This document shows positions 8,084 to 47,359 of a stretch of 64,000 bases of DNA, in pieces. The position numbers and the translations under genes are program-made. This DNA is from a virus. Location of the stretch: IMG/VR virus record IMGVR_UViG_3300045988_166882; one strand, given 5' to 3'. The notes beneath the pieces are model-generated. The model did no database searches and was not told where the DNA came from. It saw only the letters and a list, made by a program, of their open reading frames with translations. Each line of letters opens with the position of its first letter. Position 1 is the stretch's first letter.

Positions 8084-8107
8084 CCGCGCGTTGGCGTTGA
8101 CGCTTTT

Positions 8108-8143
8108 AGCCGCTGGGGATTTAGGTCCTTGGCGGCTTTTTCG
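8108..8143 (+). terminator. possible rho-independent terminator
   Basis: AGCCGC/GCGGCT stem with a long loop, followed by TTTTTCGTT. Confidence 0.4.
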
Positions 8144-8149
8144 TTGGCA

Positions 8150-8460: not shown

Positions 8461-8483
8461 GCTGAAAAACTCACAAACACGAA

Positions 8484-8675
8484 ATGGAATCAAACCCCCA
8501 ACACCCTGAAATCGATCATATGATCCAAGGCATGCAGCGTTTGGCGCAGAAATACGGAAAGCGAATCACAAATCGTCAACTCGATGTACGCTCGCTGACG
8601 GTATGTTCACTCAACGGTTGGCGCCTTACGTTGGAACGAGTAGAAACCACCAACGAAAACTCCTCACGCCAATGA
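8484..8675 (+). CDS. hypothetical protein (63 aa)
   Basis: ORF whose stop overlaps the next ATG (ATGA). Confidence 0.5.
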   Translation: MESNPQHPEIDHMIQGMQRLAQKYGKRITNRQLDVRSLTVCSLNGWRLTLERVETTNENSSRQ

Positions 8676-9241: not shown

Positions 9242-9245
9242 GACT

Positions 9246-9398
9246 ATGGCAGAATTCTTTCGCGTTGGCCGTTATTTCGACACCCAAGACGCCGAACGCA
9301 CACGCACCGAGCAATTAGAGCGCCAAAAAGCAAGAGCAGCGCTATCTGGGGTCTACAATCCTTCGTCCCGGGATGAGACTTTACCAGTTCAACTATAA
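9246..9398 (+). CDS. hypothetical protein (50 aa)
   Basis: In-frame ATG at 9246 of ORF 9165-9398, just after the upstream stop. Confidence 0.45.
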   Translation: MAEFFRVGRYFDTQDAERTRTEQLERQKARAALSGVYNPSSRDETLPVQL

Positions 9399-9615
9399 GA
9401 CCGGAGAATGTCGGGAGATTGGTACTGAACGGCGGTTGGAATTCGACCCCGTCAGCGGCAACAAGGTTACTCGTTCTGTGAAGGTCCAATACGACCCCGA
9501 TTGCGTATATCTCCAGGCCCTCAACGAGCGAAACGCCATTCGTAAGTTAGTGAAGGCTGGATACATCAAAATGGTGAAACACGATGGTAAAGATCCACAC
9601 GTCGAAGATCGATGA
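9373..9615 (+). CDS. hypothetical protein
   Basis: 80-aa ORF. Confidence 0.55.
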   Translation: MRLYQFNYKTGECREIGTERRLEFDPVSGNKVTRSVKVQYDPDCVYLQALNERNAIRKLVKAGYIKMVKHDGKDPHVEDR

Positions 9616-29412: not shown

Positions 29413-31488
29413 ATGAAAGAAGTTATCAACTACGGCGAAGCACGTCGCCAGCAAATTCTTAAAGGGTTCACCAACGTCGAGGAGGTCGCGGACGAGCCGA
29501 TCGAAAAAGCGCGTCACGGTGTCTACGCCGACAACGCTCAAAACCGTCGTCTGCAGCGCGTGGGACAGGAGTACGGTCAAGCCGCCAAGGAAGACCCCGA
29601 AGGTGAAGGCCAGGAGGGCGGTATGCCTGAGGGCAACGTCAGCCTCCAGAACCACGCTCGTCAGGCTTCAGAAGAGGCGCTGACGAAGGTCGCCAACGAC
29701 CCGCAGGCTGACCCCGAAATGCGCAAGGTGGCTACCGCTGAATTGGAACGCCGCGGTGTAAGCGTTCGCGCCAAGAACAAGAACGGCGACACTTCGCTGC
29801 GTAACGGGTTGGCTGACGGTGACGCCAAATCGGCTTCGACGTTCGAGGGCATGGGCTTCCGCCAGATGGACGATCAGGACCTCCAACAGTACGCCGGAGT
29901 TGAGGACGCTTCGCACGCCTTCATCAAGCAGATCGGCAGTGACGAAGACGGCTTCGACCTTGTGGTCACCAAGACCAGCGAGGGCTACCGCGTGGACAAA
30001 TACCCTTACGCCGACGTGGACAATTTCGAGTCGGTGACGGTGAAGGAGATTGGCGACGTTGAGGGAGCCGCGTCTAAGTTTGGTGATCCCGATGCCAAGG
30101 GTAAGGGCGGCAAAGCCGACGCCGCATCGCTCGTTGACAGTTTCAACGCTATGGCTGAGGGCGATGCAGACTTCGACGCCAAGTCGTTCAAATCGTTCGT
30201 GAAGGAAAAAGGCGGTAAGGCCGTGAAGGAAATCGCCGACGCCATTCGTAAGATGCCCAGCGAGGCCGGGCAAAGCGATCTGGCTGACGACGAGATCGCC
30301 GACATGATCGAGAATATGTTCGAGGAAGCCGGAACGCGCGTTCCGCGTGAGGCCAAGAAGGAACTCGACAACCTTCGCGGGTCGGGTGAAAGCGTTCTGG
30401 CCAAGTGGGACGCCTACACTTCGGAGTCGGGTGAAGACGATGACTTCAGCGCAGCGCTCGAAAGCCTCATCGACAACAAGGGCGAGGCTAAGGCCATCAA
30501 GGAACTCGCTGCCGCTATCAAAACCTCCGGTCAAGGTGAGGCCGCTCAGAGCGATATCCTCGACGACGAAATCGCTGACGAAATCGCCAATATCTTCGAA
30601 GAGGCCGGAATCGACCTGTCGAAGAAAGGTCAAGCCGCGCTCGACAAGATGCGTGCTGACTCGGACGGCGACGGTAACGTGAGCAGCGCCGAAGGTCTGG
30701 TCCAGAGTTTCGACGACATGGCCGAAAACGACACCGACTTCGACACCGCAGGCTTCAAGTCCTTCGTGAAGCAGAAGGGTGACGCCGCGGCTATCAAGGA
30801 ACTGGCCGCAGCCATGAAAGCAAACCCGGCTGATACCGGCGGTGCTCAGTCCGACGCTACGGACGACGAAATTGCCGACACCATCGCCAATATGTTTGAG
30901 ATGGCTGGTGTGAAGGTATCGAAGGACGGCCAGAAGGAACTCGACGCGCTGATCGGCGGCGAGGAGGAAAGCGCCACCAAGCAGGGCGAAAAGGCCGACG
31001 CCGCAGCCAAGGCTGAAGTGAAGAGCGCTGAAAAGGGTGCTAAAGCCAAGGCCGACAAAGCCGCGAAGTCTTCGCCTGAGAAGGACAACGCCGCCGCCGA
31101 CAAATTCATCAAGAAAAGCGAAAACGGAGCCAACCCCTCTGAGTACGCCAAGATGATCTCCAAGAACCCCGAAGGTATCGCCCGCGTGCTGAAGGAAAGG
31201 ATCGCTTCCGGCGACAAGGCCGCTAAACGCGCTGCTCTGAGTCTCACTTCGCTCATCGACCCGGAGTCCCGTGAGAAGGGTGTCGGCCAAGAACTCCTCA
31301 GCCACCCCGAACTCAAGAAGATTGCCGACGAACGTGCCGCAGCGCACAAACTGCTGACGGGCGTGTCTTACGACGATATGGACACGTACAAGAAGAAGTC
31401 AGACGAGCAAATTGAGATATTCAAACGTACCAACAAGGAGTTCGTCGACAAGTTCCTGGAGATTTACGGCGGTAACACCGAAGAGTAA
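29413..31488 (+). CDS. acidic repeat-containing protein (691 aa), possible internal virion or scaffold-like protein
   Basis: Long Asp/Glu/Ala/Lys-rich ORF with three ~93-aa tandem repeats. The minus-strand 559-aa ORF is a shadow. Confidence 0.75.
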   Translation: MKEVINYGEARRQQILKGFTNVEEVADEPIEKARHGVYADNAQNRRLQRVGQEYGQAAKEDPEGEGQEGGMPEGNVSLQNHARQASEEALTKVANDPQADPEMRKVATAELERRGVSVRAKNKNGDTSLRNGLADGDAKSASTFEGMGFRQMDDQDLQQYAGVEDASHAFIKQIGSDEDGFDLVVTKTSEGYRVDKYPYADVDNFESVTVKEIGDVEGAASKFGDPDAKGKGGKADAASLVDSFNAMAEGDADFDAKSFKSFVKEKGGKAVKEIADAIRKMPSEAGQSDLADDEIADMIENMFEEAGTRVPREAKKELDNLRGSGESVLAKWDAYTSESGEDDDFSAALESLIDNKGEAKAIKELAAAIKTSGQGEAAQSDILDDEIADEIANIFEEAGIDLSKKGQAALDKMRADSDGDGNVSSAEGLVQSFDDMAENDTDFDTAGFKSFVKQKGDAAAIKELAAAMKANPADTGGAQSDATDDEIADTIANMFEMAGVKVSKDGQKELDALIGGEEESATKQGEKADAAAKAEVKSAEKGAKAKADKAAKSSPEKDNAAADKFIKKSENGANPSEYAKMISKNPEGIARVLKERIASGDKAAKRAALSLTSLIDPESREKGVGQELLSHPELKKIADERAAAHKLLTGVSYDDMDTYKKKSDEQIEIFKRTNKEFVDKFLEIYGGNTEE
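30121..30960 (+). repeat. three tandem coding repeats of about 279 nt
   Basis: Units share D-x-DFD..FKSFVK.KG.A.AIKE[IL]A.A[IM]K....G.AQSD..DDEIAD.I.N[IM]FE.AG...S/P...K.LD. Confidence 0.7.
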
Positions 31489-31917: not shown

Positions 31918-32196
31918 ATGGAACATTGTTTAACATCCACCGGAACCCCTACGCGGGCCGAAAAAGTGTTGGAGAATACGTTCAATGAAAGCGAGCCTAT
32001 TGAGTACTTCTGCGAACTGAAATCCGGCGACTGGGTTATAATCCAGCTGGGGAGCCTCAAACTGGGGTATCATTACCGGAGCGGAGTTGTCAGCGAACGG
32101 AAAGACGGTAGTATTGAAGTGAGGTCAGGAGGGCATCGTATTTTATTCAAACCGGGTAGCGAACACAGAATACGAAGATGCAAGTTGATGAAGTAA
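31918..32196 (+). CDS. hypothetical protein
   Basis: 92-aa ORF. Confidence 0.55.
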   Translation: MEHCLTSTGTPTRAEKVLENTFNESEPIEYFCELKSGDWVIIQLGSLKLGYHYRSGVVSERKDGSIEVRSGGHRILFKPGSEHRIRRCKLMK

Positions 32197-32726
32197 CAAA
32201 GGCTTTTCACGAGGCCAGCCGATATCGCGCCGATCACTTACGTAAGGCCCTTGGTGGTTTTACGGAGAACGGCCTGATCGAAAAGGGCCGTTCAAAGAGC
32301 GGTCGCTACGCCAACACGGCTGAGAATCGAAGAAAGGGACGTGTTGGCATGCCTTATGAAAAGAAAGGCCGTGGACCAGCGCCACACCAGCGTCGAGATT
32401 CTGAACATCGCCGAAACGGTACGTATATTCGTACGCTTACTGCAGGTGACGGGAACGAGGCTCTCGAAATAGGCGAAGACGGCGTTGCTCGTAATGATTT
32501 TTACGACAACCAAGAAGTCGGCAAATACACCAAGAAATACGAAAAAGTCAACAACGGAGACAAGGTTCGTTATGGTAGTAGAATCTATACCGTTTACGCC
32601 ACAAAGAACTTAACCGAAGGCGGGGTAACAACGCAATTCGTTCAATTCACTGGTAAGCCTTCTTACAGTGGTGCTCCGCGTGGAACGGGCAAGTGGGTTC
32701 CCCGAAAAGACGTCGAGAAACTATGA
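32178..32726 (+). CDS. hypothetical basic protein carrying the Y-A-[DN]-x-A-x-N-R-R-x-x-R-V-G motif
   Basis: 182-aa ORF. GRYANTAENRRKGRVGMPY at 32301-32357 parallels HGVYADNAQNRRLQRVGQEY in the gene at 29413. Confidence 0.6.
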   Translation: MQVDEVTKAFHEASRYRADHLRKALGGFTENGLIEKGRSKSGRYANTAENRRKGRVGMPYEKKGRGPAPHQRRDSEHRRNGTYIRTLTAGDGNEALEIGEDGVARNDFYDNQEVGKYTKKYEKVNNGDKVRYGSRIYTVYATKNLTEGGVTTQFVQFTGKPSYSGAPRGTGKWVPRKDVEKL

Positions 32727-33655
32727 TTTTCAACAATCGCCAAATAGACGACATGGTCGGCATTCTCCGGCGTTGGCAGTACCTGTTTATTGCCAAGCAC
32801 GTCGGATTAGACTTTCTGACCCAGTCGGAGATCGACATCTTGGTGGCGTCAGGGGTCAACGTCGATAAGTACAAGAACACGAAAGGTATCATCGAACACG
32901 CTTTTCTGTTCGGTATCTTGGCTGAGGCACTCGGCGATCAACGCGCCAAGAAGATGAATTACAAGCAGTTTCTCCAGTACCTCAAATCAGGAAACTTCGT
33001 TCCGCTCACCGAGCAGGAGGAGAACGCGCTGAATTATCTCAAGAACCGCGCCTACACCGACATCACGTCGCTCGGAAACCGTATCGTTACCGGTACGCGC
33101 AACGCCATCCTCAAATCTAACTTTCGTCAGCAAGCCGCCATACGCCAGCAGATCAAAGATAAGGCCATGCAAGCCGTCCAACTGCGTAAGGGGGCGCGGT
33201 ATATAGCCAGCGAATTGGGGAACCTTACCCAAGACTGGGGACGCGATTGGCTGCGTATTGCGTACTACCTTCTGCACGAAGCCTACAACGTGGGCCGCTC
33301 GGAAAGTATCTACAAGCAGTATGGCCCCGACGCTATGGTGTATTTCGACGTATACCCCGGCGCGTGTGCCAAATGCCGCGAGTTGTACTTGGAGGACCCC
33401 GAAGACCCTAATTCGAAGCCAAAACTGTTCCGCCTCGGAGACCTTATCGCCAACGGTAACAATATCGGCCGTAAGGTGGCTGAGTGGCTTCCTACGATCG
33501 ACCCGACGCACCCCTACTGCCGCTGTACTATCAACCACGTACCGCCGGGGTACGAGTGGGACCCTGAAACACGCGCTTTCACCAAGCCTGTCAAGCGTCA
33601 GTTCAAGAACCCAAAGTTAAGGAACGTGAAACTCAACATTAAAGTAACAAAATAA
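32723..33655 (+). CDS. MuF-like minor head (head morphogenesis) protein
   Basis: CAKCRELY...IDPTHPYCRCT matches the SPP1 gp7/Mu F signature (HPxCRC). The ATG at 32723 overlaps the upstream stop. Confidence 0.65.
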   Translation: MIFNNRQIDDMVGILRRWQYLFIAKHVGLDFLTQSEIDILVASGVNVDKYKNTKGIIEHAFLFGILAEALGDQRAKKMNYKQFLQYLKSGNFVPLTEQEENALNYLKNRAYTDITSLGNRIVTGTRNAILKSNFRQQAAIRQQIKDKAMQAVQLRKGARYIASELGNLTQDWGRDWLRIAYYLLHEAYNVGRSESIYKQYGPDAMVYFDVYPGACAKCRELYLEDPEDPNSKPKLFRLGDLIANGNNIGRKVAEWLPTIDPTHPYCRCTINHVPPGYEWDPETRAFTKPVKRQFKNPKLRNVKLNIKVTK

Positions 33656-34614
33656 TGAAAAACAAAATCGTACAAGACCCCCCGTTCACCATGCAGATCG
33701 AGCCGACCGAGGGTTGTAACTTGGGGTGTTCGTTCTGCGGCCTTCACGGCATGCGTGAAAAGGGTACCAAACCGTGGAATTTCATGACCGTCGAAACCGC
33801 CGAGCGTATCGCTTCTGAGGTAGCGCGTGTGGGCTGGAATTGCAAGTTCGTGTTCGCTATGCACGGCGAACCCACGCTCAACCCGGCGTTCATCGACATC
33901 GTGGCCACGTTCCGCAAGCACTTGCCGAAGGCCGTGTTCCATATGTACAGCAACGGCTACGCCATGAACCACGCCGACGACACCGAGGCTTACCTCGACC
34001 GCCTGTTCGGCGCTGGCATGAACGACATCTTGGTGGACTGCTACACCGCCAACGGCGACTGGAATTTCGTCGAGAAGATCGATGTCGATAAGTACAACGT
34101 CGTCACGCTGGAACCGGGCGTTCCGTACTACTACCCCAAGCAGGGCCGTCGTATCTGCTTGCTGCCGCCCATCGCCCAGGACGATACCAACAAGATGACG
34201 CGGCGTCTGGCCAACCACTGCGGCGCGGCGTTCCCGCTCGACGATTCGTTCAACAACAAGCGTTGTACTTTCCCGTTCCGGGAACTGGACGTGCGCTGGA
34301 ACGGTCAGGTCTGCTTGTGTTGTGACGACTTCCGCGGTGAGTACCCCATCGCCAACATCCACGACATGCCCATCGAAGACCTTTGGAACCACCCGCGCTT
34401 CCACGCCGCTCGCGTGATGCTGTACAATAACGACCGCCGCTTCCGCCCGTGTCAGGGGTGTACGCACGTCAGCGTTCGCGTTGGCTTCCTGCCTGACAAG
34501 AAGGGTAAGCAGACGCTGCCGGCTATCACGCCCGAAATCCGCCGTATGGCTGAAGAGGTATCGAAGGACGGCCCCTGCGCCGAGAAGATTTACCGACGGC
34601 CATGGGAAAAATAA
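33655..34614 (+). CDS. radical SAM enzyme with SPASM/twitch-like C-terminal Cys cluster
   Basis: CNLGCSFC (CX3CX2C), HGEPTLNP, and C-terminal CTFPF..GQVCLCCDDF..PCQGC. Confidence 0.8.
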   Translation: MKNKIVQDPPFTMQIEPTEGCNLGCSFCGLHGMREKGTKPWNFMTVETAERIASEVARVGWNCKFVFAMHGEPTLNPAFIDIVATFRKHLPKAVFHMYSNGYAMNHADDTEAYLDRLFGAGMNDILVDCYTANGDWNFVEKIDVDKYNVVTLEPGVPYYYPKQGRRICLLPPIAQDDTNKMTRRLANHCGAAFPLDDSFNNKRCTFPFRELDVRWNGQVCLCCDDFRGEYPIANIHDMPIEDLWNHPRFHAARVMLYNNDRRFRPCQGCTHVSVRVGFLPDKKGKQTLPAITPEIRRMAEEVSKDGPCAEKIYRRPWEK

Positions 34615-35282
34615 AGTACCTTTGTGTCGAGTCTCAAGCGGGTGATCTCCTGATGAGTGCTTGTCACGTTTTAGTAGCACCTGAATATGACGTTCGGGTG
34701 CTTACTGTAGATAACGCCCCAAAGCCTTTGGCTGAGCAGCAGCGGTTGTACGATTTTCTGGGTATCGGGATGGACCGCTTGGACTTAGAGTTAGAAGATG
34801 TCCGTTGTGGCGATTTTAAGGCCCATTCTGCGGACTGCAACTACGAAGGCGTCTATACGTACCTTCGCGCGAAATACGGGAACGACGGACTTAATTTCGC
34901 CGAACAAACGCTTCGCGATTACCTGCGTAAGTTTATGCGCCGCAACCCCGGTTACGTGATACTGGCGCCGCTGGGGTCGGGACACCCCTTCAACCAGTTC
35001 GTTCACGATGTGGTGTTTGATACGGCGTCGGCGGCAGAATACTATCGCGACTTTCCATATTCGTACGTACCACGGGGTCGTGAACAGGTCAGGGTCCAGT
35101 GCTACGGCGGCGAAACTTTACTGATGAAACGCCGAGTTCCGTGCGACGATATGTTCGACGTGAAGTGGGAACTGGCTATGCGCTTCTACCCGTCGTTATC
35201 GCCGACGATACGCAAGTATCAGCGTTTTATAGAACAAAACCCGCCCGAAGAAATCTGGTACGAGGGCGATTTACCATTTTAA
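34602..35282 (+). CDS. hypothetical protein, possibly PIG-L/LmbE-fold (deacetylase-like) with a degenerate metal site
   Basis: Three blocks are collinear with PIG-L: LCVESQAGDLL..VRVLTV, QQRLYDFLGIG, and PGYVILAPLGSGHPFNQFVHDV. The HPDDE motif is not conserved. Confidence 0.55.
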   Translation: MGKIKYLCVESQAGDLLMSACHVLVAPEYDVRVLTVDNAPKPLAEQQRLYDFLGIGMDRLDLELEDVRCGDFKAHSADCNYEGVYTYLRAKYGNDGLNFAEQTLRDYLRKFMRRNPGYVILAPLGSGHPFNQFVHDVVFDTASAAEYYRDFPYSYVPRGREQVRVQCYGGETLLMKRRVPCDDMFDVKWELAMRFYPSLSPTIRKYQRFIEQNPPEEIWYEGDLPF

Positions 35283-35285: not shown

Positions 35286-36089
35286 ATGGATTGTCAATTC
35301 TTCGTCGTGTCCAAGAACCGCCCCAAGTGCGTCACGACCAAATTGTTGGAAAAGGGCGGCGTCGACTACCACATCGTGGTCGAAAAGGAAGACGTTGAAA
35401 AGTACGTCGAAGCAGGTCACGACCGTAAGCGGTTGATCGTACTACCAGCGTCGAACCGCGGCTACAGCTACGTGGTCAATTTCTGCAAGAACACCTACCT
35501 CCGCGCCGGGCGGCCTGTGGTGGTGATGGATGACGATATCGCCAACTTCTTCTACTCGATCGACGGCGAAGCCAAATGCGGCCTTTCGCTGAAGACCCCA
35601 GAAGAACTGTCAGAGTTCTTTGAAGAGTTCAACCGCGAAGTCATGGAGACCGACTTCGAGTACGGCACCATGGGCAAGAGCGCCTTCGACTGGAGTTGTA
35701 CCGACGTCAGCCCGCGTTTCAAGTACGGCGGTATCCCTCACCTCATCGTGTTCAAAGGGCTGCGGACGCTGGAGTTGGACTTTGACGAAAAGTTGGAGTT
35801 GAAGTGCGACATCGACTATTCGTTGAAGTGTATGTATCTGGGCATCGTCTACGCACGCTTCGTACGCTTCCTTCTCCAGAGTAAGATGAACAAGGAGGCA
35901 AATCAGGGCGGCGGCCTTCAAGACGTGTACGAGCGTCAGGAACGTGTTCAGCGTGCTCACAACATCATATTGAAGCGGTGGCCGCTGAACGCCCGTGTCG
36001 ATGACAAGAAGAAGCCCATCAACGGCGTACCGGAGTTACGTATTGTGTACAAGAAATTTGATATTGACTTTGATGCGGTGGAGGTGTAG
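35286..36089 (+). CDS. GT-A-fold glycosyltransferase-like protein (paralogue of 17098-17913)
   Basis: FVVSKNRP, NRGYSYVVNF, VVVMDDDIANF (DxD). Confidence 0.55.
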   Translation: MDCQFFVVSKNRPKCVTTKLLEKGGVDYHIVVEKEDVEKYVEAGHDRKRLIVLPASNRGYSYVVNFCKNTYLRAGRPVVVMDDDIANFFYSIDGEAKCGLSLKTPEELSEFFEEFNREVMETDFEYGTMGKSAFDWSCTDVSPRFKYGGIPHLIVFKGLRTLELDFDEKLELKCDIDYSLKCMYLGIVYARFVRFLLQSKMNKEANQGGGLQDVYERQERVQRAHNIILKRWPLNARVDDKKKPINGVPELRIVYKKFDIDFDAVEV

Positions 36090-36124: not shown

Positions 36125-37873
36125 ATGTCAGACAATATCCAAAAAGCAAAGCACAACGTCGGCGATCATCATCCTACGCAACCGTGGGTGTGGACGGAGT
36201 ACAAGCCCGGAAAGTTCAACTGGCGTGTCGACAAGAACGCCAAACCCAAGGACAACGCCGATACCGGTAAACAATCGACAGGCGGCGGCGCCACGAGCCT
36301 CGAAGAGTGGGCTAAGCGTACCACCGACGACAACCTGCTCAAAGTAGTAAACAACCCCAAAGGTAACGCGCAGTTGCGGCAGATTGCCTACAACGAACTG
36401 AAGTCACGTAACGCCGATCTTTTGCAGGTCGATACAAGCGGTACGTTGGCCACGCTGTTGAAGATGACCACCCAGCAGGACCCCGTGGCACCCACCAACG
36501 CCGCGGCTAAAGTAGACATCAACGACGGCGAGGGCGGAAACGACGACGGTGAAATCGTTGAAGACTGGTTCCTCAACCCTGACGACCCGCGCATTCAGAA
36601 GAAGTTCAACAAACTCCAAAGCCGTCAGGACCGTATTGCGTACGACCGCTTCGTCTACGCGATGAAGAAGAAGGACCCTGACTACCAGCCGCCTGTTGAG
36701 GTGATGTACGACCTGAACCGCCAGTATCTGGAGTTCTTGGACAACAAGGAGCAGCGGTTCATGATCTCGGCTGGTGGTGCCGGTATCGGTAAATCGTACG
36801 GTTTCAAGAAAATCGCCGAACTGCTCAACAAGCGTCCGTTTGACGCCGAAACCGACGCGCCGGGCGATGGCGACTATGACTACGTTGAACTCGGTGACAT
36901 CAACTCCAAGAAGCAGCTGCTGGGCGTACTCAAAGCCCACAACGGCAAGATTCTTCTGTTCGACGATACCGACTCCGTTATCACCCGCGCCGACTTGGCT
37001 TCCATCATGAAGAAGGCCACTTCCGCTTCAGGTAAGCGCGTGGTCGGAGACCCGGACGACGTCAAGTCGAATTTCGTATTCACGGGCCGTATCATCATCA
37101 TGACCAACAAGGACCTCGTGAACCTCGCCAAGAACGAGGATGCCAAGGCTATCATTTCGCGCGCTACGCTGACGTCGGAAGTCTACCTGACCGTTGACGA
37201 GACGATCGAGGTTCTGAAGGACCGCTACGAAGACATGGACGTTCCCCAGCAGCCGCACCTCGATGACCCCGAAGAGGACAAGCAGGAACGTAAAGAACTG
37301 TTTGACCTTATTGTCAAGAACAAGAATAAGATCGACCCTGCCAAGTTTACCACCCGTACCTTTGGCACCATCTTGTCGGAGAAGCGTTCTGCCGACCGCG
37401 CTAACAAGCGCGCCAAGCAGGGCGGTCAGTGGACAAACCTGATCGGCAGCCAGCAAAAGGAGTGGGAACGCGCCGCCGTTCGTGCACTGACGAAGGGACT
37501 CGCGTACGAGGCCATTCAACCCGTCGAAACGTCGGATGATATCAGTAAGGCCGAAGCCCTGCTCAGCGACGCAGAATCGCTCGAAAAGGCCGATTTTACC
37601 GAAGAGCAGCGTGAGAAACTTGCCAAGAAGAAGGAGGCCCTCCCTGACGGCTCGTTCCCGATTCGTAACAAGTCCGACCTGAAGAACGCCATCCGTCTTG
37701 CTGGTAACGCCAAAAACCCCGAACGCGCTCGGCGCTGGATCAAACGCCGCGCCAAGTCGCTCGGTGCTGAGGATATGATCCCCGACACGTGGAAGGCTCA
37801 GACTACTGACCTCGGTTCGCTGCCGGCTGACGACATGTCGATCGAAAAGGCTGAAACCCTCTTGTTCGGATAA
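36125..37873 (+). CDS. P-loop (AAA-like) ATPase domain protein (582 aa)
   Basis: Walker A GGAGIGKS, Walker B ILLFDDTD, then FTGRIIIMTN. The C-terminus carries FPIRNKSDLKNAIRLAG. Confidence 0.7.
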   Translation: MSDNIQKAKHNVGDHHPTQPWVWTEYKPGKFNWRVDKNAKPKDNADTGKQSTGGGATSLEEWAKRTTDDNLLKVVNNPKGNAQLRQIAYNELKSRNADLLQVDTSGTLATLLKMTTQQDPVAPTNAAAKVDINDGEGGNDDGEIVEDWFLNPDDPRIQKKFNKLQSRQDRIAYDRFVYAMKKKDPDYQPPVEVMYDLNRQYLEFLDNKEQRFMISAGGAGIGKSYGFKKIAELLNKRPFDAETDAPGDGDYDYVELGDINSKKQLLGVLKAHNGKILLFDDTDSVITRADLASIMKKATSASGKRVVGDPDDVKSNFVFTGRIIIMTNKDLVNLAKNEDAKAIISRATLTSEVYLTVDETIEVLKDRYEDMDVPQQPHLDDPEEDKQERKELFDLIVKNKNKIDPAKFTTRTFGTILSEKRSADRANKRAKQGGQWTNLIGSQQKEWERAAVRALTKGLAYEAIQPVETSDDISKAEALLSDAESLEKADFTEEQREKLAKKKEALPDGSFPIRNKSDLKNAIRLAGNAKNPERARRWIKRRAKSLGAEDMIPDTWKAQTTDLGSLPADDMSIEKAETLLFG

Positions 37874-37876
37874 CCC

Positions 37877-40261
37877 ATGGACGAACTGAGAAAAGCGCTG
37901 GAAACTTTCGCCCTCCGTAACGCCGAGGGCGAAGTTTCTGACGCCATGCTGGAGAAGGCGTGTGAGGCGTACAAGGTTCGTTCTTCAGAGTTCGTCGACG
38001 ACTACCAGTATAACCTGTACGTGGCGAAGTCCGTCTACGATCACCTCCATGGCGTCGATCAAGACCCTGAAATTTCAAAGGCTATCATGCCCGGCCAGAC
38101 TAAGGTTGTCGATGGCGTGGTGTATATTTGGACGCTTACCCCTAACGCCAAAACGAAGTACGACTGGCGAGTTTACAAGAATCCTCAAGGTACACCCGTT
38201 GGAAAGGGTCCTTTTCGCTCTAAAGCCATATTAGAACGGCAGCAGAAGGAAGTGAACGAAATGTTCCCCGCCGACCCCTCTGAATTGACCTTCGTTCAGA
38301 AACTGGGCGGTTCTACGGGGGCTGAGTTGATGAAAGACGCCAAGGGCCGTGAGTTCGTCGTAAAGAGTTCTAAGAACACCACCCGCGGTCACATCGCAGC
38401 GGAGTACTACGCCGCGCAGGTATACAGCCTTTTGGGGTTGGACACGCCTGACTATGAAATGTACGACGACGGAACGGACCTCGTGTTGATATCGAATTAC
38501 ATGCGCGGCATGTCCGAACCTCAAGTTAAGGACTACGACACCATGGCTAAAGGCTTTGTCGTTGACGCCTTTTTGGCCAACTGGGATATTTACAAAAACG
38601 ACAACTGCTTGGTTGACGCCGCTGGTAAAGTCTACCGCGTCGACAACGGTAGTACGTTTGATTACCGTGCCCAAGGAGCCAAGAAGCCTTTTGGCAACCA
38701 AATCGACTGGGATAACATGGTGCGGTACAATTCCAGCGTGGTTGCCAACCTCAAGCCGCAGGACTTCATCGATCAGATTGACGCCCTGAAAGCCCGTAAA
38801 GACGAAGTATTGGCGTATTTTGACGCCGGAAGGCTCGGTTCCAAGCCGAAGATGCGCGCCATCATTGAGGCTCGTTTCAAAGACCTCGACCGCATCCGCG
38901 GTATTTATGAGATAGAAGTACGTCGTACCAGCAGACAAGTTGCGCCCCGAACGCTCAAGTCTCCGGCAGATATGTACCGCGACTTCACCGAAGATGAGAT
39001 CAATGATTTTTGGAATAATCAGCCCGGAGCCGATTATTACCAAAAGTTACAACGTCACAGCGGCCATACGGGGTGGGAACTGCTCTCTACCATTTGTAGC
39101 GCTCGTGGCTTTGATGCGCGGCCTGATGTAGTCGACGACGCTACGTTCTTCGCCAAGGCTGCTCAGAATAAGTATCATATGTTCCGGGGAGTGGAACGTA
39201 ACGGAACGGATAAAAACTACTACGCCGACGACTTCAAGTACAACGACGCTTGTTACTACGGAACTGTTGGTGTGTATGCTGAAGGAATCTATTTCCATGT
39301 GAACGATTCGTCTAACGCCGACCGCACTCCATCCGGCTATCAGAAGACTTCGGCTTATCACAACGCTCGCGGTTACGCGGGTAGTGGTGCCATTATCGAG
39401 GCAGTTCTCGACGACAGCGCCAAGGTCATAACCGTTAATGACGCTCGTGAAGAGGTCAAGCAACTGTCTGCCGGTAATTCACCTGCTTTCCAAAAGGCAA
39501 AAAAAGAACTCGACGACGCCAAGGCCGAATACCAGCGCGTAACCGACGAACTCAACAACCTTACCGACACTACCGAAAAGAAGGTAAAGTCCGATATGCA
39601 CTGGGACGACGCTTCGTACGTCGATATCCCGTTACAAATCGACCAGATTATCGACTGGGGTGCCATCGACGATGACGGCAACCCGGCATACATGAAGTTT
39701 GACGACTTCATGGATAATCACCTAAAAGGCTGGATCAAGGCTAACGGCGGTACTATTACGGCCAAGGGTGGAGGCACCGACGACTACGTCATCAAGATGC
39801 CTAACACCAACGAACGGTTCGTCTTTTCGCGCTTTCGGTACGAGAACGACGCTATCAAACGTAAGAACGCATTTGCGCGTCCGTACAACTATCCCGTTCG
39901 CCAGCTGAAGGAATGGATCATGCGCGAGCACTTCGGTAAAATTGAAGATGCCGTAAAGAGTGCCATCAACAACTTGGATGACGAAGTGAAACGTTTGCAG
40001 GGCGAACAGCGCAAGGCGTATGTCGATTACAAAGACAAGGACAACGCCATGAGCAAGTTGAGCGTAAACGCCGTTGGTGATCCTGATAAGGACATCTATG
40101 CTGCCATCTACAAGAACGTTCATAAGGACGGCGAAAAAGAAGCACTGGGCGTATACGCTGCTTTGAAGGGATATGACGCCCTTATTCAGCCTAACGGAAA
40201 CGGTTCCGGTAACTCGTTCATGATCGTGTTGAATCGCTCTAAAATCATTACTCGTAAATAG
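37877..40261 (+). CDS. large multidomain protein: PI3/4-kinase-like or protein-kinase-like domain plus ART-like domain
   Basis: KGREFVVKSSK...DAFLANWDIYKNDNCLVD..GKVYRVDNGSTF resembles a kinase catalytic loop. HMFRGVE...GVYAEGIYFHVN...IIEAVL resembles the ADP-ribosyltransferase R/G-x-G-I-Y-F/E pattern. Confidence 0.7.
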   Translation: MDELRKALETFALRNAEGEVSDAMLEKACEAYKVRSSEFVDDYQYNLYVAKSVYDHLHGVDQDPEISKAIMPGQTKVVDGVVYIWTLTPNAKTKYDWRVYKNPQGTPVGKGPFRSKAILERQQKEVNEMFPADPSELTFVQKLGGSTGAELMKDAKGREFVVKSSKNTTRGHIAAEYYAAQVYSLLGLDTPDYEMYDDGTDLVLISNYMRGMSEPQVKDYDTMAKGFVVDAFLANWDIYKNDNCLVDAAGKVYRVDNGSTFDYRAQGAKKPFGNQIDWDNMVRYNSSVVANLKPQDFIDQIDALKARKDEVLAYFDAGRLGSKPKMRAIIEARFKDLDRIRGIYEIEVRRTSRQVAPRTLKSPADMYRDFTEDEINDFWNNQPGADYYQKLQRHSGHTGWELLSTICSARGFDARPDVVDDATFFAKAAQNKYHMFRGVERNGTDKNYYADDFKYNDACYYGTVGVYAEGIYFHVNDSSNADRTPSGYQKTSAYHNARGYAGSGAIIEAVLDDSAKVITVNDAREEVKQLSAGNSPAFQKAKKELDDAKAEYQRVTDELNNLTDTTEKKVKSDMHWDDASYVDIPLQIDQIIDWGAIDDDGNPAYMKFDDFMDNHLKGWIKANGGTITAKGGGTDDYVIKMPNTNERFVFSRFRYENDAIKRKNAFARPYNYPVRQLKEWIMREHFGKIEDAVKSAINNLDDEVKRLQGEQRKAYVDYKDKDNAMSKLSVNAVGDPDKDIYAAIYKNVHKDGEKEALGVYAALKGYDALIQPNGNGSGNSFMIVLNRSKIITRK

Positions 40262-41217: not shown

Positions 41218-42963
41218 ATGCCGAGTTTTGTAAATATGGCGTCGCTTACCAAGTTGACGTCGATTACGGGAAACGAAGAGTTTCAAGTCTCAGCTACCAA
41301 CAAGATTAGTTCAAGAGACATAGCTTCATTGGCGCTTACACAGCAATTACATGGTTTATCGGAGGTCACTATTGGATCACCAAAAATATCAAGTACCTCG
41401 TTGTTGCTGTCTGCCATAGCAGCACTTTACAGGCTTAGTAGCGACAATGGTAAAATACTTCCAATTTCCAACGGTATTGATAAGTTCGGAAATGTCGTTT
41501 TTTCCGGTACTAATGCAGTCGGGATATTATTCGATGTGAAGGCATCCAAATACTTTACCCGATCAGGAGTGACTGCCACTGCAATCTTCAACAGCGCGCA
41601 ATGGATTTCTTGGTTGCAAGACGGAGAGGCTCATGAGATGGACGGTGGTTCCGGTGTTGCCGATCCGATTCAGATTCACGACTTCGCCGAGGTCAGTGCT
41701 ATCGACAACTGGCCGACGCCTAAAGACGGTCTGATTATTCCGTTTGTTACGGATTCAGGCGTTCTGAATAAACCGGGGAACGAATCCGAGTACGTGGGCA
41801 TCATCATCTGCGAAGTAGATACCCAAAATACGGGCCGCGCCGAAGTAATTGCTTACGGATGTGGAACTGGTGCGTGCTATGTAGGATTACTGGATTATGC
41901 TTCGGTCAGTATCGAATGGATGGTAAACAAAATGTCGGTCGCTGGCAAAAAACTTAGCGCGTTTACCGGTACTGCAATCGGAAACTATATTCAGAGCATG
42001 GGAAATGCTGGTGACTTATTTCCGTTCGTCACTGTAAACGCCAACAAGACTACCGCTAACCAGTTTCCGGCCAACGGTGCATGGAGTGGATTCGTCACCA
42101 TTGGTGACGGGGGTGGTGTAAACATTATTGCTTTCAAAAGCACCACTGATCCGAATGCCGAGGTTTATGTCGGTCGTTGTAGTGGCGGCACTACCCAATG
42201 GACCCTCGTCGGTGGTGGTAGTGGTGGTGGTGGTGGACTGGACGTGATTAATGTTCCTATGGGCGGTGATATAGGCTCCATCATTGCTGGTGCAAACTGG
42301 AAACAAACGGGAATGGAGGGAGAGATGAAAGCCGTTTTTGTCTTGGACCCTGCAAGTGTTGTTGGAGACTATTTTCCGAATCTTAAAAACGCTCAGACAC
42401 TCGCAGGATTTGCTCAATGTGTCTATGACGGTTCAGACTATCAGTATTTCATAACCACCCTATTCCCGTATACAGACACATTACGCAATCTCTCAAAAGA
42501 GTATGGGCGAATTCTTTCAGAAACTAACGGGGATGTTATCGACTATGAAGAATATCCGTATTGTGGAGAGGCCCCTATTCCCGGTTATTCTACTTTAGTG
42601 AACGTATGGCGTGGTCCTTTAGTGACAGATAGTACCGGGGTTATAAATTTTAACGCTGAGATACCTACATCTTCAAAGATATTGGTTGTCGCAAAACTGC
42701 GTAGCTCAACTGCTACAACAGCCAATGTCGTAGCGAATATCCCTATAACTTTTGTTGATGTAAATTCGACAGGCCAAGGAATTATACTCGACTACACAAA
42801 CCTACTCATAGGTAAAAACGGTGTTCCCGGTTCCATAAGGCTCATTTGTTCGTCTGTTATTACTGGAGCTACGGGTGTACAAGGTATGAATTTCGTGTTA
42901 CAAGTGAGCAACGTATCAGATGTGTCTAATATTCTCGAAATAGCGATGTATAGCAATAGATAG
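41218..42963 (+). CDS. tail fibre / receptor-binding protein (581 aa)
   Basis: Low-GC ORF, Gly-run hinge (GGGSGGGGG), Ser/Thr/Gly/Asn/Val-rich (beta-type composition). The C-terminal third is homologous to the inverted ORF at 43448-44230. Confidence 0.65.
   Translation: MPSFVNMASLTKLTSITGNEEFQVSATNKISSRDIASLALTQQLHGLSEVTIGSPKISSTSLLLSAIAALYRLSSDNGKILPISNGIDKFGNVVFSGTNAVGILFDVKASKYFTRSGVTATAIFNSAQWISWLQDGEAHEMDGGSGVADPIQIHDFAEVSAIDNWPTPKDGLIIPFVTDSGVLNKPGNESEYVGIIICEVDTQNTGRAEVIAYGCGTGACYVGLLDYASVSIEWMVNKMSVAGKKLSAFTGTAIGNYIQSMGNAGDLFPFVTVNANKTTANQFPANGAWSGFVTIGDGGGVNIIAFKSTTDPNAEVYVGRCSGGTTQWTLVGGGSGGGGGLDVINVPMGGDIGSIIAGANWKQTGMEGEMKAVFVLDPASVVGDYFPNLKNAQTLAGFAQCVYDGSDYQYFITTLFPYTDTLRNLSKEYGRILSETNGDVIDYEEYPYCGEAPIPGYSTLVNVWRGPLVTDSTGVINFNAEIPTSSKILVVAKLRSSTATTANVVANIPITFVDVNSTGQGIILDYTNLLIGKNGVPGSIRLICSSVITGATGVQGMNFVLQVSNVSDVSNILEIAMYSNR
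42193..42204 (+). repeat. left copy of the inverted 12-mer at the fibre constant/variable junction
   Basis: ACCCAATGGACC, read as ACC CAA TGG ACC (TQWT). Confidence 0.5.
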
Positions 42964-43447: not shown

Positions 43448-44137
43448 TTAGATATTGGCATACACACCTTTAATCCGCAAAATATCAGATGGATTACCTA
43501 AATTGTTTGATGTTACAACTACTTGTAATCCCTGAATCCCTTTCGCTCCTGTCACAACAGAAGCAACATTCAAACGGATTTGCCCGATATTAGTTCCGGA
43601 CGCAATACTTCGGGTGTTCAAATCCATAAGTGTTGCTGCTTGTACGGGATTAAAGAACGTTACAGGAATAGCCACTGATCGAATGTCAGCATTGGGACCA
43701 GCCGATGATCTGAGTTCGGCGTCAATGAACATTGCCGTACTGTTGATGACCTCATAGTTAAAATTCACAATCATCAAACTCCCTGCTGATAATGCCAAGT
43801 CATATTGATTGGCTATTTTGGTAAATCCGGGGATAGGGGATGCAAAGGTACCAATGGGGGTCAACATGGTCTCCATTACGTCACCGCTATTGTTCATCAG
43901 CACTTCTCCCCGGTAAGCGATCCGGCCTGATGTTTCCCATATTGTGAAGGTTAGTCCAATGTGTTGATAATCTCCGCCATCATACACACGCTGGGCATAT
44001 CCAACAATAGTAGATTCAGCCTGCGGAAAAGAAGCGTTTTTGATCTGAGGTAATTGATCGTATATATCGGATGACGGCTCTATGAATACAGGCACTATTT
44101 CGCCATCCTTATCCCACGAGTGATTTTCAACAATCAT
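43448..44137 (-). CDS. alternative tail-fibre C-terminal cassette (frame open to 44230 without a start codon)
   Basis: The only convincing minus-strand ORF in the window. Collinear with residues ~326-581 of the + strand fibre. The homology continues 31 codons upstream of its first ATG. Confidence 0.6.
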   Translation of the reverse strand: MIVENHSWDKDGEIVPVFIEPSSDIYDQLPQIKNASFPQAESTIVGYAQRVYDGGDYQHIGLTFTIWETSGRIAYRGEVLMNNSGDVMETMLTPIGTFASPIPGFTKIANQYDLALSAGSLMIVNFNYEVINSTAMFIDAELRSSAGPNADIRSVAIPVTFFNPVQAATLMDLNTRSIASGTNIGQIRLNVASVVTGAKGIQGLQVVVTSNNLGNPSDILRIKGVYANI

Positions 44138-44286: not shown

Positions 44287-45831
44287 ATGTTTAAGGACGA
44301 TAAATTCAATTTCTGGTGCCCTATCGGGCGCATCGAGAAGGCCACCGACGAAGCGGGTGAACCCGTTATGCGTATCGGCGGTATTGCCTCTACCATGGAT
44401 AAGGACGCCGATGGCGAATACCTCGATCCCACGGGGTTTGACATCGAGCCGCTGAAGAACTCCGGAATGGTTAACTGGCACCACCAAGCCAAGAACTCCC
44501 CAGCCGCTATTATCGGTGAGCCGTCGAAGGTCGAGTTGCGTCCTGAAGGTCTTTGGATCGAGAGCGACCTGTACGCTTCGTCGCCTATGGCTAATGAGGT
44601 CTACGAACTGGCCAAAACTCTCGAAGAAGACAGCAAGACGCGCCGCTTGGGGTATTCCATCGAAGGAAAGGTTGTAAAGCGTGCTTCTAACGACAAGAAG
44701 TCGCCCCTCTACAACAAGATCGTTAAGGCCGTTATCACTGGCGTGGCCGTAACCCACATGCCCAAGAATCCTCATACGTTCGTCAACATCATAAAAGGCC
44801 AAATCGACGCCGACGGCATTGAGGTCGATTTGGAGGAAGAGGACGACAACGCCGAACAGCGCGGTGGTGATACCGAGAAGAAGGCTCTTACTACGTCCAG
44901 TGGCGCAGCGTTGATGCCTGAGTCGGTCGACGGCCAACCGAAGAAAACGTTCTCGAAATCTTCCGTCATGGAATGTATCTTCCGCGACATTCCAAATATT
45001 ACAATACCGAACGCCCAAGAAGTGTACACTTTAATCAAAAACATATCGGTTATGAACAAACGCAAATCCATCACTTCCGAGGACATCGAGAAGGCATACG
45101 ACGCTCTGGGGCTGAATCCCGAGGGTAAGGTTGCCGCCGATGCCGAAGACGTGCAAAAGGGTGACGACGCCGACGGCCAGATGGGTAAGGAAGACGAAAC
45201 CCACGACGACGAGCCGCGTCATAACGCCGCCAACATGAAAAATGCTAAGGCCGGCAAGAAGGAGGAATCCGAAGAGGAGACCGAAGACGACGACGAGGGC
45301 TTCGAGCAGTGCGACAAGAACGGAGCCAAGATGAAGAAGGCCGCCGACAACGACCTCATGAAGGCTATTCAGGGCATTGGTAACGACTTCAAGTCGTACA
45401 TCAAAGCTACTGCCGTACTGGTGAACGATCTCCGTCAGAAACGCGCTGAGGACGCTAAACGTATCGCCGAACTCGAAGACGTCATCAAAGGCCAGACCGA
45501 GGTCATCGAAGGCTTCTCTACCAAACTGGAACGCTACGGCAGCGAGGTTCCGCGCCCCAAGTCGCTGCGTTCGGCTACGGTGGTTGACCGCGCTTTCGCC
45601 AAGGGTGACACCAAAGGCGACATCGAGAAGGCCGACGGCATTACCCGTATCTCCATGACGGAGCATCCCAAGGCCGTTGCTTCGCTGCTCGATCAGGCGT
45701 CGTTCGCCAAGGGCTACGACAAGGAGTACGGTGACGCGCTTTTGGCGTTTGAGGCCAGGCCGGAAGACGGCGTTCCTTCGAACATCATCGCTCGTCTGAA
45801 GGCGGAAACCGGATACGAGATCGTGAAGTAG
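44287..45831 (+). CDS. prohead serine protease fused to an acidic/coiled-coil scaffold-like C-terminus
   Basis: IGGIASTMDKDADGEYLDP, VNWHHQ, RRLGYSIEGKV and ITGVAVTHMPKNPHT match the HK97-type prohead protease pattern. The C-terminal half is Asp/Glu/Lys-rich. Confidence 0.75.
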   Translation: MFKDDKFNFWCPIGRIEKATDEAGEPVMRIGGIASTMDKDADGEYLDPTGFDIEPLKNSGMVNWHHQAKNSPAAIIGEPSKVELRPEGLWIESDLYASSPMANEVYELAKTLEEDSKTRRLGYSIEGKVVKRASNDKKSPLYNKIVKAVITGVAVTHMPKNPHTFVNIIKGQIDADGIEVDLEEEDDNAEQRGGDTEKKALTTSSGAALMPESVDGQPKKTFSKSSVMECIFRDIPNITIPNAQEVYTLIKNISVMNKRKSITSEDIEKAYDALGLNPEGKVAADAEDVQKGDDADGQMGKEDETHDDEPRHNAANMKNAKAGKKEESEEETEDDDEGFEQCDKNGAKMKKAADNDLMKAIQGIGNDFKSYIKATAVLVNDLRQKRAEDAKRIAELEDVIKGQTEVIEGFSTKLERYGSEVPRPKSLRSATVVDRAFAKGDTKGDIEKADGITRISMTEHPKAVASLLDQASFAKGYDKEYGDALLAFEARPEDGVPSNIIARLKAETGYEIVK

Positions 45832-45871: not shown

Positions 45872-47359
45872 ATGGACAGACTTTCTATCAATCTCGCCGA
45901 CTATGGCATCCAAGCGCGTGGTGCCCAGTACGGCTCGTCCAGTCAGGAAGAGGTCGCTGCGCTGAACAAAGCCCTCGAAGCCACCGACATCACGGGTCGT
46001 CAGACGACGAACCTTACCGATGCCTCCGGTGCGCCGCTGAAGGTGGAGTCGCTGGAGCGTACTCTGAAGCACCTGACGTTCCGTGAGAGCGACATCGTTC
46101 TCTGGAAGAACCTGCCGAAAAAGGCCGCCTACAACACCGTTGAGGAGTACAACCAGTTGGCATCGTACGGTGCTGACCGCGGTGGCTTCACCAACGAAGG
46201 CGAACTCCCCGACGAGGAAGACTCGATCTACATCCGTCGGGCTCAGCTGGTGAAATACCTCGGCGTCACCAAGTCGGTTACGCACCAGATGACCCTCGTC
46301 AACACGATGGTGGGCAACATCATGGAGCGCACCATCAAAGACGGTACGCTGTGGATTCTCCGCAAGCTGAACAAGTCGCTGTACTACGGCAACTCGGACA
46401 TCATCCCGCAGGAGTTCAACGGTCTGCTGGCTCAGCAGCTGCAGTCGGACGCATGGAGCGGTCTGGACGCTTACCTCAACTCTGAGAACGTGATCGACCT
46501 TCGCGGTCGTGGCCTGACCGAGGACCCCATCGAGACGGCTGCCAACTCGATCGTCGAGAACTACGGCCTCGGAACCGAGCTGTATGCTCCCCCCGCCGTT
46601 CTTTCGGACTTCGTCAAGACGTTCTACGGCAACAAGTTCATCCAGCCCAACACCGCCCAGACCAGCGCCGGTATCATGGGTCAGCGCGTTCAGGCGTTCG
46701 ACTCGCAGTTCGGCCGCATCGGCCTCAACTACGACGTCTTCTTCAAGAAGGCTCCGTTCAAGGTTGCTGGTGCTCAGTCGACGCATCCCAAGTCGCCCGC
46801 CGCTCCCGTATGGGACACCGCCGCTCCGGCTACGGTTGTTGCTGACGTGACGACCTCGAAGTTCAACTCGGAGGACGCTGGCAACTACATCTACGCTATC
46901 GCAGCCATCAACCGCCACGGCGAGTCGTCGCTGGTGGTGAACGAGACTCCGGTGGCCGTGACTGCGGGGTCGGTCGTTGACCTCAAGTTCTCGATCGTGG
47001 ACAACGCTCACCCGGCTACGGGTTATCGCGTGTACCGTTCGAAGAAGGGTGGCGACAAGAACAGCAAACTGTACCCGATCTTCGACATCTCGGTGGCTCA
47101 GCTGAAACTGGGTTACGCAGGGGCTGCCGGCGATCTGTGCCGCGATAACAACTACTTCCTGCCCGACTGCGATCAGGCCTTCCTGGTTCAGTTCGACAAC
47201 GAAGTGATCGAGTTCGCTCAGCTGGCTCCGCTGATGAAGATGGACCTCGCGATTCTGTCGCCTGCGTACCGCTTCATGGTGCTGCTGTACGGTACGCCGT
47301 TCCTGTACGCGCCGAAGAAGTTGGTCCGCCTGATCAACATCGGACGCGCCTCCAACTAA
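45872..47359 (+). CDS. major capsid protein (HK97-fold by position)
   Basis: 495-aa ORF directly after the protease/scaffold gene, followed by a strong hairpin. Confidence 0.7.
   Translation: MDRLSINLADYGIQARGAQYGSSSQEEVAALNKALEATDITGRQTTNLTDASGAPLKVESLERTLKHLTFRESDIVLWKNLPKKAAYNTVEEYNQLASYGADRGGFTNEGELPDEEDSIYIRRAQLVKYLGVTKSVTHQMTLVNTMVGNIMERTIKDGTLWILRKLNKSLYYGNSDIIPQEFNGLLAQQLQSDAWSGLDAYLNSENVIDLRGRGLTEDPIETAANSIVENYGLGTELYAPPAVLSDFVKTFYGNKFIQPNTAQTSAGIMGQRVQAFDSQFGRIGLNYDVFFKKAPFKVAGAQSTHPKSPAAPVWDTAAPATVVADVTTSKFNSEDAGNYIYAIAAINRHGESSLVVNETPVAVTAGSVVDLKFSIVDNAHPATGYRVYRSKKGGDKNSKLYPIFDISVAQLKLGYAGAAGDLCRDNNYFLPDCDQAFLVQFDNEVIEFAQLAPLMKMDLAILSPAYRFMVLLYGTPFLYAPKKLVRLINIGRASN

Follow-up and report, generated by a model that had tools for sequence, protein, structure and literature searches.

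The stretch of viral DNA considered here (IMG/VR record IMGVR_UViG_3300045988_166882, 64,000 nucleotides, hereafter the window) carries, at positions 36125-40261, two adjacent genes on the plus strand that encode proteins of 582 and 794 residues (Table 1). Both open reading frames (ORFs) are present as a preliminary description of this DNA had placed them; they are separated by 3 nt, and 1 nt lies between the stop of the second and the next ORF. The motifs that the same description cited for the two products are all found in the proteins to which it ascribed them, with a conservation in homologues that goes beyond chance, and the interpretation it built on them is supported in part. The shorter product looks like a modular P-loop ATPase of AAA+ type. 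The longer one, which is the main subject here, joins a kinase-fold domain to a domain that is split in two by an insert and that probably belongs among the relatives of the ADP-ribosyltransferases (ARTs).

Table 1. The two genes, their predicted parts and the genes around them in the window (residues refer to the encoded protein, positions to the window).
Feature	Residues	Position	Strand	Evidence or remark
582-residue protein gene		36125-37873	+	ORF; modular P-loop (AAA+-like) ATPase
N-terminal module of the ATPase (KA..VGD.HP...WVWTEYKPGKFNWR)	8-37	36146-36235	+	
Walker A, GGAGIGKS	217-224	36773-36796	+	Invariant, 20 homologues
Walker B, LLFDDTD	277-283	36953-36973	+	F279, D280, D281, D283 invariant, 20 homologues
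Candidate sensor 1 (MTNK, N328) and candidate arginine finger (SRA, R346)		37091-37168	+	
C-terminal LPDGSFPIRN..DLKNAI module of the ATPase	506-548	37640-37768	+	Nearly invariant in the family
794-residue protein gene		37877-40261	+	ORF; kinase fold and split ART-like domain
N-terminal region	1-130	37877-38266	+	Three helices and a beta-hairpin unit (model)
Protein-kinase-like (HipA/CtkA/PI3-4K-like) domain	131-352	38267-38932	+	Fold search, conservation
ART-PolyVal-like domain, N-terminal half	396-530	39062-39466	+	R437-G438 on strand 1, G470-x-Y472 on strand 2
Insert of ~210 residues	531-737	39467-40087	+	Long coiled-coil helices and a small alpha/beta unit (model)
ART-PolyVal-like domain, C-terminal half	738-794	40088-40258	+	G765-Y-D767-A on strand 5, L-N786-R787
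Large terminase		14361-17078		Context gene
Portal protein		24069-25829	+	phrog_12, 3.5e-45
Putative MuF-like minor head protein, 320 residues		32693-33655	+	Context gene
Radical-SAM plus SPASM enzyme		33655-34614		Inside the head-gene block; E 1e-15 and 3e-12
Conserved 226-residue protein		34602-35282		Inside the head-gene block
TAGT-like (TET-associated) glycosyltransferase		35286-36089		E 1e-13; phrog_842, 2e-18
Head maturation protease		44287-45831	+	phrog_1028, 1e-34
Major capsid protein		45872-47359	+	phrog_752, 4e-86

The 794-residue protein belongs to a family of 164 homologues, most of them 785-815 residues long. Its conservation was read from an alignment of 33 homologues with 38-88% identity to the window protein, and the same alignment was used for an AlphaFold2 model with a predicted local distance difference test (pLDDT) score of 87.8. 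The N-terminal region is conserved among the homologues and has no family match in Pfam or PHROG scans. In the domain that follows, the sequence motifs are VVKSSK (residues 161-166), VDAFLANWDIYKNDNCLVD (229-247) and RVDNG (254-258), where K163, E176, D230, N235, D242, D247, R254 and G258 are invariant and D256 and N257 are kept in at least 90% of the homologues; upstream, the GGSTGA loop (144-149) is likewise invariant or at least 90% kept. The order of these motifs corresponds to a glycine-rich loop, the lysine of strand beta-3 (K163), the glutamate of helix alpha-C (E176), a D230-x4-N235 loop and, in D256, the equivalent of the DFG aspartate. From this order and its spacing we infer a complete kinase active site, comprising the residues expected for ATP binding and phosphotransfer.

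The fold agrees. A Foldseek search of the Protein Data Bank (PDB) with the model returned 14 matches at E<=1e-3, exclusively kinase domains and with probabilities of 0.99-1.0. The top match is the kinase domain of ThurKC (2.5e-5), and others include RNase L, the APH-like AmiN, CK1, PAK1, Src-family kinases, CtkA, PI3K-delta and PI4KIII-beta; the best target-normalised TM score, 0.49, belongs to Helicobacter pylori CtkA. For the window protein itself, Pfam gives no match at E<=0.1 and PHROG no family above threshold, and the protein reaches the curated cut-off of none of HipA_C, HipA_2, Pkinase and PI3_PI4_kinase. A search of PDB sequences with the whole protein, by single sequences and by profiles, gave nothing significant. 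When the 33 members of the family are scanned, the most frequent Pfam matches other than coiled coils are HipA_C (9 of 33, best E 0.004) and HipA_2 (4 of 33), both below cut-off. The kinase fold of residues ~131-352 is thus confirmed and well supported. The earlier proposal of a core like those of PI3/4-kinases or protein kinases is borne out, since the fold matches, the sub-threshold HipA matches and the order of the invariant catalytic residues agree.

Like members of the HipA/CtkA/PI3-PI4-kinase superfamily, the domain has a bilobal fold, a glycine-rich loop, the beta-3 lysine, the alpha-C glutamate, a D-x4-N motif and a metal-binding aspartate. It differs from the families of that group in lacking any Pfam kinase assignment at cut-off and in the extra conserved positions N241-D242-N243 and R254. 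A kinase family of polyvalent proteins, Kinase-PolyVal, has been described (Iyer et al., PMC5512222); it is absent among the top families of the Pfam scans, both for the window protein and for the 33 members.

The ART-like region had been proposed on three motifs, HMFRGVE (residues 434-440), GVYAEGIYFHVN (465-476) and IIEAVL (506-511). The first two hold as the equivalents of strands 1 and 2, and R437, G438, G470, Y472 and H474 are invariant in the alignment. The third does not: its glutamate is unconserved (homologues have ILECCL, INLLAY, IVKGVI and others in its place), and the third motif is instead GYD767A, close to the C-terminus. The invariant residues fall into two patches far apart in the chain, one at residues 399-474 (RGF..P, R437-G438, D457, G470-x-Y472-x-H474) and one at 758-789 (G765-x-D767, G774-N775, F781, N786-R787-x-K789). 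A profile of the N-terminal half, searched against 1.84 billion representative proteins, matches 642 of them (E<=1e-3), in many cases in more than one stretch and in as many as six per protein. When the two halves are joined (residues 396-530 and 738-794), the resulting profile matches relatives contiguously, over profile positions 3-193 and in one to three full copies per protein, so that the two halves form one domain of ~185 residues. The insert of ~210 residues falls between strands 4 and 5 and is, as judged from these profiles, specific to the window clade. Across the whole family the conserved positions are G-F..P, R-G, G-x-Y, G-Y-D-A and N-R. In the clade Y472 and D767 show no variation, and family-wide they are kept in at least 90%, whereas H474 and N775 are conserved in the clade only; N786 and R787 are family-wide extras.

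To which ARTs is this domain related? When 30 relatives are scanned with the sequence of the domain alone, by far the commonest Pfam family is ART-PolyVal (PF18760), matched by six. The best of these matches has an E of 9e-5 and scores 23.7 bits, where the cut-off is 31.2, and all are hence sub-threshold; two of the 30 match the PARP family. The ART-PolyVal match is in register and extends from the G-x-Y motif through the GYD motif (profile positions 29-124 of 140). The prototype of the H-Y-D domain is the vRNAP-like protein of Roseovarius Plymouth podovirus 1, CBX87992.1 (Iyer et al., 2017, PMC5512222), in which we place the domain at residues ~1015-1150 with the motifs YHGT, GLFFT and GYDG. 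When an alignment of 82 sequences of the domain described here (R-Y-D, after R437, Y472 and D767) is compared by hhalign with seven H-Y-D sequences, namely CBX87992.1 and six tblastn relatives from N4-like roseophages, rhizobial and Pseudomonas plasmids and a crAss-like phage, the two align with probabilities of 84.3% in local mode (E 7e-6) and 86.5% in global mode (E 5e-7). The alignment spans 100-117 columns, the whole domain, and pairs R437 with the histidine, Y472 with tyrosine or phenylalanine (the G-x-[YF] motif) and D767 with the aspartate of GYDG.

The common motifs x-Y-[H/R]-G, G-x-[YF]-F/T and G-Y-D-[AG]-I are thus collinear with those that ART-PolyVal (the Tox-ART-HYD2 clade) has on its strands 1, 2 and 5. 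As in ART-PolyVal, one to several copies occur per protein, often at the C-terminus, in phage proteins that include MuF fusions. The differences are an arginine in place of the strand-1 histidine (R437 is invariant at this position, in the clade and family-wide), Pfam scores under the gathering cut-off, an extra N-terminal helix-GF..P-strand unit and, in the window clade, the insert. In four relatives of 358-980 residues (P0392, P0286, P0281 and P0341) a NUDIX domain above cut-off lies directly upstream of the R-Y-D domain; of 49 relatives, two match Phage_Mu_F and one Phage_min_cap2. This context agrees with a chemistry of NAD+ or ADP-ribose and with an association with the head.

Several observations weigh against this assignment, and with it against the view of the protein as an ART. 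The window protein and the joined domain have no Pfam match. The H-Y-D sequences were placed by motif in CBX87992.1, without a Pfam check, and with a smaller query hhalign gives a probability of 25% and aligns the GYD..NR segment alone. A HMMER profile of the domain does not match the ART-PolyVal prototype protein, the relationship being visible solely to hhalign with the large alignment; HMMER profiles searched against the PDB find no ART either, the sole trace being the tankyrase motif GGMFGAGIYFAE, which matches GxGIYFA at an E of about 3. Foldseek with the model of residues 395-794, where the coiled-coil insert dominates the matches, returns no ART from the PDB at E<=0.6 but coiled-coil matches alone, and from BFVD it returns uncharacterised phage proteins, with the PARP-like 100L of the iridovirus IIV-6 at E 3.3. 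Finally, with arginine for the canonical histidine the chemistry may differ.

On balance we are fairly confident in regarding the domain as a divergent ART-PolyVal relative, with arginine in place of histidine. By these comparisons it falls outside the curated ART-PolyVal family of Pfam and also outside the R-S-E ARTs of the Alt type. The preliminary description had implied the latter clade, from which the profile alignment to the H-Y-D domains leads away: compared with T4 Alt and VIP2 (ADPrib_exo_Tox), the arginine is present and the STS and ExE motifs are absent. No match to ADPrib_exo_Tox is found in the window protein, whereas two giant phage proteins that share its kinase domain do match it.

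These two proteins came from a tblastn search of cultured phages, in which matches to the 794-residue protein are confined to residues 134-365, that is, to the kinase domain and its immediate surroundings. The domain is carried by giant proteins of Pseudomonas phages Dolphis and Jeremy, Escherichia phage ECML-606-1 and phages of Yersinia and Aeromonas. In Dolphis gp117 (1222 residues) and in the ECML-606-1 protein (2253 residues) it is fused upstream of a C-terminal ADPrib_exo_Tox domain that scores above the Pfam cut-off. In Gordonia phage Forza it is found in gp78, directly after the portal gene gp77 and downstream of a MuF-like gp75, and two genes further on, upstream of the capsid gene, lies gp80, a protein of 1017 residues annotated as an ADP-ribosyltransferase. 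A hidden Markov model (HMM) of the kinase domain built from the window clade scores 7e-30 with the ECML-606-1 protein, 2e-29 with Dolphis gp117 and 2e-23 with Forza gp78. A kinase-ART pairing in or near the head module therefore recurs across phages of unrelated hosts, and it does so in three independent architectures: the fusion in Dolphis and ECML-606-1, the neighbouring genes of Forza and the R-Y-D fusion of the window. No description of such a pairing was found in the literature searched. The Forza region that holds gp75, gp77, gp78 and gp80 (MK814760.1, L005, 5841-14197) belongs to a cultured system suited to a packaging test.

Where does the gene lie in its own phage? The terminase, portal, protease and capsid genes around it mark the head-morphogenesis block of a myovirus. 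The window capsid protein is 48-49% identical to those of Bacteroides phages SJC03 and DAC19-23 and about 41% identical to its counterpart in Chryseobacterium phage MA9V-3; no similar DNA was found among cultured phages. The nearest cultured phages lack the 794-residue gene, and no cultured member of the clade was found. Homologues of both proteins come from metagenomic phage contigs of ~95-100 kb, mostly of human gut origin, with Hadza samples among them. The gene order in the window is MuF-like protein, radical-SAM/SPASM enzyme, 226-residue protein, TAGT-like enzyme, ATPase, kinase-ART protein, five ORFs, protease and capsid. In a contig whose kinase-ART protein is 38% identical (L003), it is MuF-like protein (679 residues), a 222-residue homologue, a GT4-like enzyme, ATPase, kinase-ART protein, a 118-residue homologue, protease and capsid, so that the succession of ATPase, kinase-ART, protease and capsid is retained.

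The two genes had been described as sitting between MuF-like and protease genes. Between that gene and the protease, however, there are seven further ORFs, radical-SAM/SPASM and TAGT-like genes among them, and the MuF label is unconfirmed. The label derives from an HPYCRC motif at the C-terminus and from the homology of residues 262-320 to residues 263-320 of one relative of the ART-like domain (P0368), in which this stretch of ~58 residues, matching the C-terminus of the 320-residue window protein, lies just upstream of the ART-like domain. The window protein is also 59% identical to the first 310 residues of the 679-residue MuF-like protein of L003. In the corresponding slot between MuF and protease genes, MA9V-3 (PV245944.1, L006) has at 5217-9596 an unannotated protein of 1459 residues that is dissimilar to the window proteins.

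A large and variable cargo gene in this slot would fit the model of head-packaged effectors (Iyer et al., PMC5512222; PMC9503650), as would the MuF fusions and the gene order of Forza. Like polyvalent and MuF-linked packaged effectors, for which T4 Alt is the precedent, the protein unites unrelated enzymatic domains in a single chain, its gene has portal, MuF and protease genes for neighbours, and the same domains turn up in giant multi-domain proteins of phages. It departs from those effectors in having two catalytic domains only and no fusion to MuF or portal, in not being an R-S-E (Alt/VIP2) ART, and in that its packaging is a prediction. Given the gene position and the MuF and NUDIX fusions of its relatives, delivery of the 794-residue protein in the capsid is plausible. 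Two points count on the other side: Pfam and PHROG matches are absent for the product of 32693-33655, which leaves its MuF-like label unconfirmed, and radical-SAM/SPASM and glycosyltransferase genes lie in the block too, so that a structural or packaged role does not follow from a place there. Recurring KALE/KAE motifs were considered as sites for the prohead protease and rejected, their glutamate not being conserved in the kinase family.

What would such a protein do? The explanation favoured overall, which we hold with evenly poised confidence, is that of a two-enzyme protein that is incorporated in the capsid, injected, and active on host proteins. It starts from the kinase fold, the conservation at catalytic positions, the split-domain architecture, the spread of both families and the recurrent pairing of kinase and ART, all of which are established. 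With the N-terminal helical and beta-hairpin region, the kinase-fold domain and the ~185-residue ART-PolyVal-like domain in that order, the protein would be a late product, made with those of the head genes. Some of it at least would enter the capsid and reach the host along with the DNA, where it would phosphorylate host proteins and ADP-ribosylate them in an NAD+-dependent manner, in the service of takeover or of counter-defence. T4 Alt and polyvalent proteins are reportedly injected with the DNA.

A broader version can be put forward tentatively. Here the R-Y-D domain would stand for a large uncurated branch of ARTs, comprising at least 642 representative clusters, often linked to NUDIX or MuF domains and in some proteins repeated several times, with the kinase family as its recurrent partner in phage head modules and a two-step modification of the host as the outcome. 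That the partner is an undescribed HipA/CtkA-like family present in phages of Bacteroidota, Proteobacteria and Actinobacteria is an equally speculative part of it. If this were true, phosphorylation together with ADP-ribosylation of a host target, carried out by a capsid-delivered enzyme, would be a conserved strategy.

Alternatively, the 794-residue protein may be an intracellular late enzyme that acts during morphogenesis on the phage's own capsid or internal proteins or on its DNA, as a member of a modification cluster and without injection. We regard this as rather unlikely. The radical-SAM plus SPASM and TAGT-like genes immediately upstream would suit it, as would the tight gene spacing, which suggests a single operon, and the distant relative retains a glycosyltransferase of another family and the 226-residue homologue beside its ATPase-kinase pair. 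The radical-SAM and TAGT genes are, however, missing in that relative, where the kinase-ART gene is kept at 38% identity, and members of both families are found repeatedly in polyvalent or MuF-fused proteins without such neighbours; genes for TET/JBP or hydroxymethylase enzymes did not turn up, though no search was aimed at them. As an observation apart, the presence in the head block of a TAGT-like enzyme, a radical-SAM/SPASM enzyme and the 226-residue gene, and of a GT4-like enzyme at the same place in the distant relative, suggests that these enzymes may serve the glycosylation or hypermodification of virion or DNA.

It is also conceivable, at a still lower likelihood, that the chemistry is other than that of a kinase and a protein ART. 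The ART-like domain might be an NAD+ glycohydrolase or an enzyme acting on signals that are nucleotides or derive from ADP-ribose, or on nucleic acids, and the kinase-like domain might catalyse an atypical transfer such as AMPylation or glutamylation; atypical chemistry is known for the kinase-fold enzymes SelO and SidJ. With the same slight probability, the role would then be counter-defence against immunity based on NAD+ or ADP-ribose. This would accommodate the arginine that replaces the conserved histidine of H-Y-D ARTs, the extra conserved N786 and R787 (family-wide) and H474 and N775 (clade), and the NUDIX fusions that recur in relatives. Against it, every canonical kinase residue is in place, and sequence does not discriminate between the chemistries. 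Finally, a structural or scaffolding component of the head with relic, inactive enzyme-like domains is very improbable: a place in the head block, long coiled-coil segments and an ART-like domain that departs from the canonical triad could all be read that way, but residues at catalytic positions are invariant or at least 90% kept in a family diverged to 38% identity, and relics usually lose them.

The injected two-enzyme protein would be of interest on several grounds. Among phage weapons, ARTs packaged in the head and polyvalent proteins are predicted to reach the host first, but few have been tested. The locus, which comes from abundant gut phages, offers a compact and highly conserved example with two domains, in which the catalytic residues are clear. 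It also brings to light two domain families missed by current libraries, a HipA/CtkA-like kinase that repeatedly travels with ARTs and an ART-PolyVal relative with arginine for histidine, common in the proteins of phages. What is new is the combination of these two families, the insertion within a domain and the change from histidine to arginine, all within the known concept of polyvalent proteins. If the enzymes are active, the chemistry of phage takeover and counter-defence would be wider than now described, and hundreds of hypothetical phage proteins would be better annotated.

The neighbouring ATPase had been proposed as a second effector acting alongside the kinase-ART protein. Its Walker A and Walker B motifs and TN segment are present as described and invariant among 20 homologues, out of a family of 323. 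T327, N328 and K329 of the segment IIIMTNK (residues 323-329) are invariant too, as are S345, R346 and A347, and their predicted roles as sensor 1 and arginine finger follow from the AAA+ order of motifs. The protein thus resembles AAA+ ATPases in having Walker A, Walker B, a polar sensor-1 residue and a downstream SRA arginine in the expected succession, and differs from them in having no profile above cut-off and in a core flanked by short phage-specific modules. Its Pfam matches are sub-threshold (AAA_30 at 17.1 bits against a cut-off of 27; AAA in four of 20 members, E 0.02), it matches phrog_1250, whose function is not annotated, at 1e-11, and neither sequence nor profile searches find a match in the PDB. 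The names given to its homologues at source are inconsistent: ClpB, TniB, FleQ, clamp loader and even thioredoxin. The core has homologues in phages that lack the kinase protein, namely Chryseobacterium phage MA9V-3, in whose head-gene block the gene lies between the portal and MuF-like ones, and Bacteroides DAC phages; the ATPase is therefore part of the wider gene set of the lineage, and a role as co-effector finds no support.

The modules that flank the core have distributions of their own. The C-terminal region matches Microbacterium phage proteins independently of the core. In L003 the N-terminal module heads two other head-block proteins and also directly follows the MuF-like domain of the 679-residue protein; it might be a shared tag for head targeting or interaction. 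As KA..VGD.HP.G.WVWTEYKPGKFDWR (window 36146-36235), the module recurs in the L003 genes at 1637-2809, 3102-3836 and 3855-5894. An N-terminal targeting module common to the ATPase and the 794-residue protein was also considered and dropped (hhalign probability 1.4%, module HMM E 0.044). Separately, the motif [IS]-x-K-A-E-x-L-L occurs twice in the ATPase, at 37547-37564 (residues 475-480) and 37847-37864 (575-580); it is conserved, with up to three copies in homologues.

Elsewhere in the window, the ATPase (residues 70-95) shares an N.P....R..A..EL..R stretch with a highly acidic repeat protein of 691 residues encoded at 29413-31488. The motif Y-A-[DN]-x-A-[QE]-N-R-R-x-x-R-V-G is common to that repeat protein (at residue ~47) and to a 182-residue protein encoded upstream of the MuF-like gene at 32178-32726 (at residue ~55). 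Downstream of the kinase-ART gene, the C-terminal ~227 residues of a 581-residue ORF (41218-42963, plus strand) are copied at 43448-44137 on the minus strand, with 33% identity (BLASTP 3e-31). The copy is convergent and lies ~0.5 kb downstream, and both are in an island of low GC content (0.437 against about 0.53), with weak inverted repeats at most. One possible reading is an alternative C-terminal cassette for a protein associated with head or fibre.

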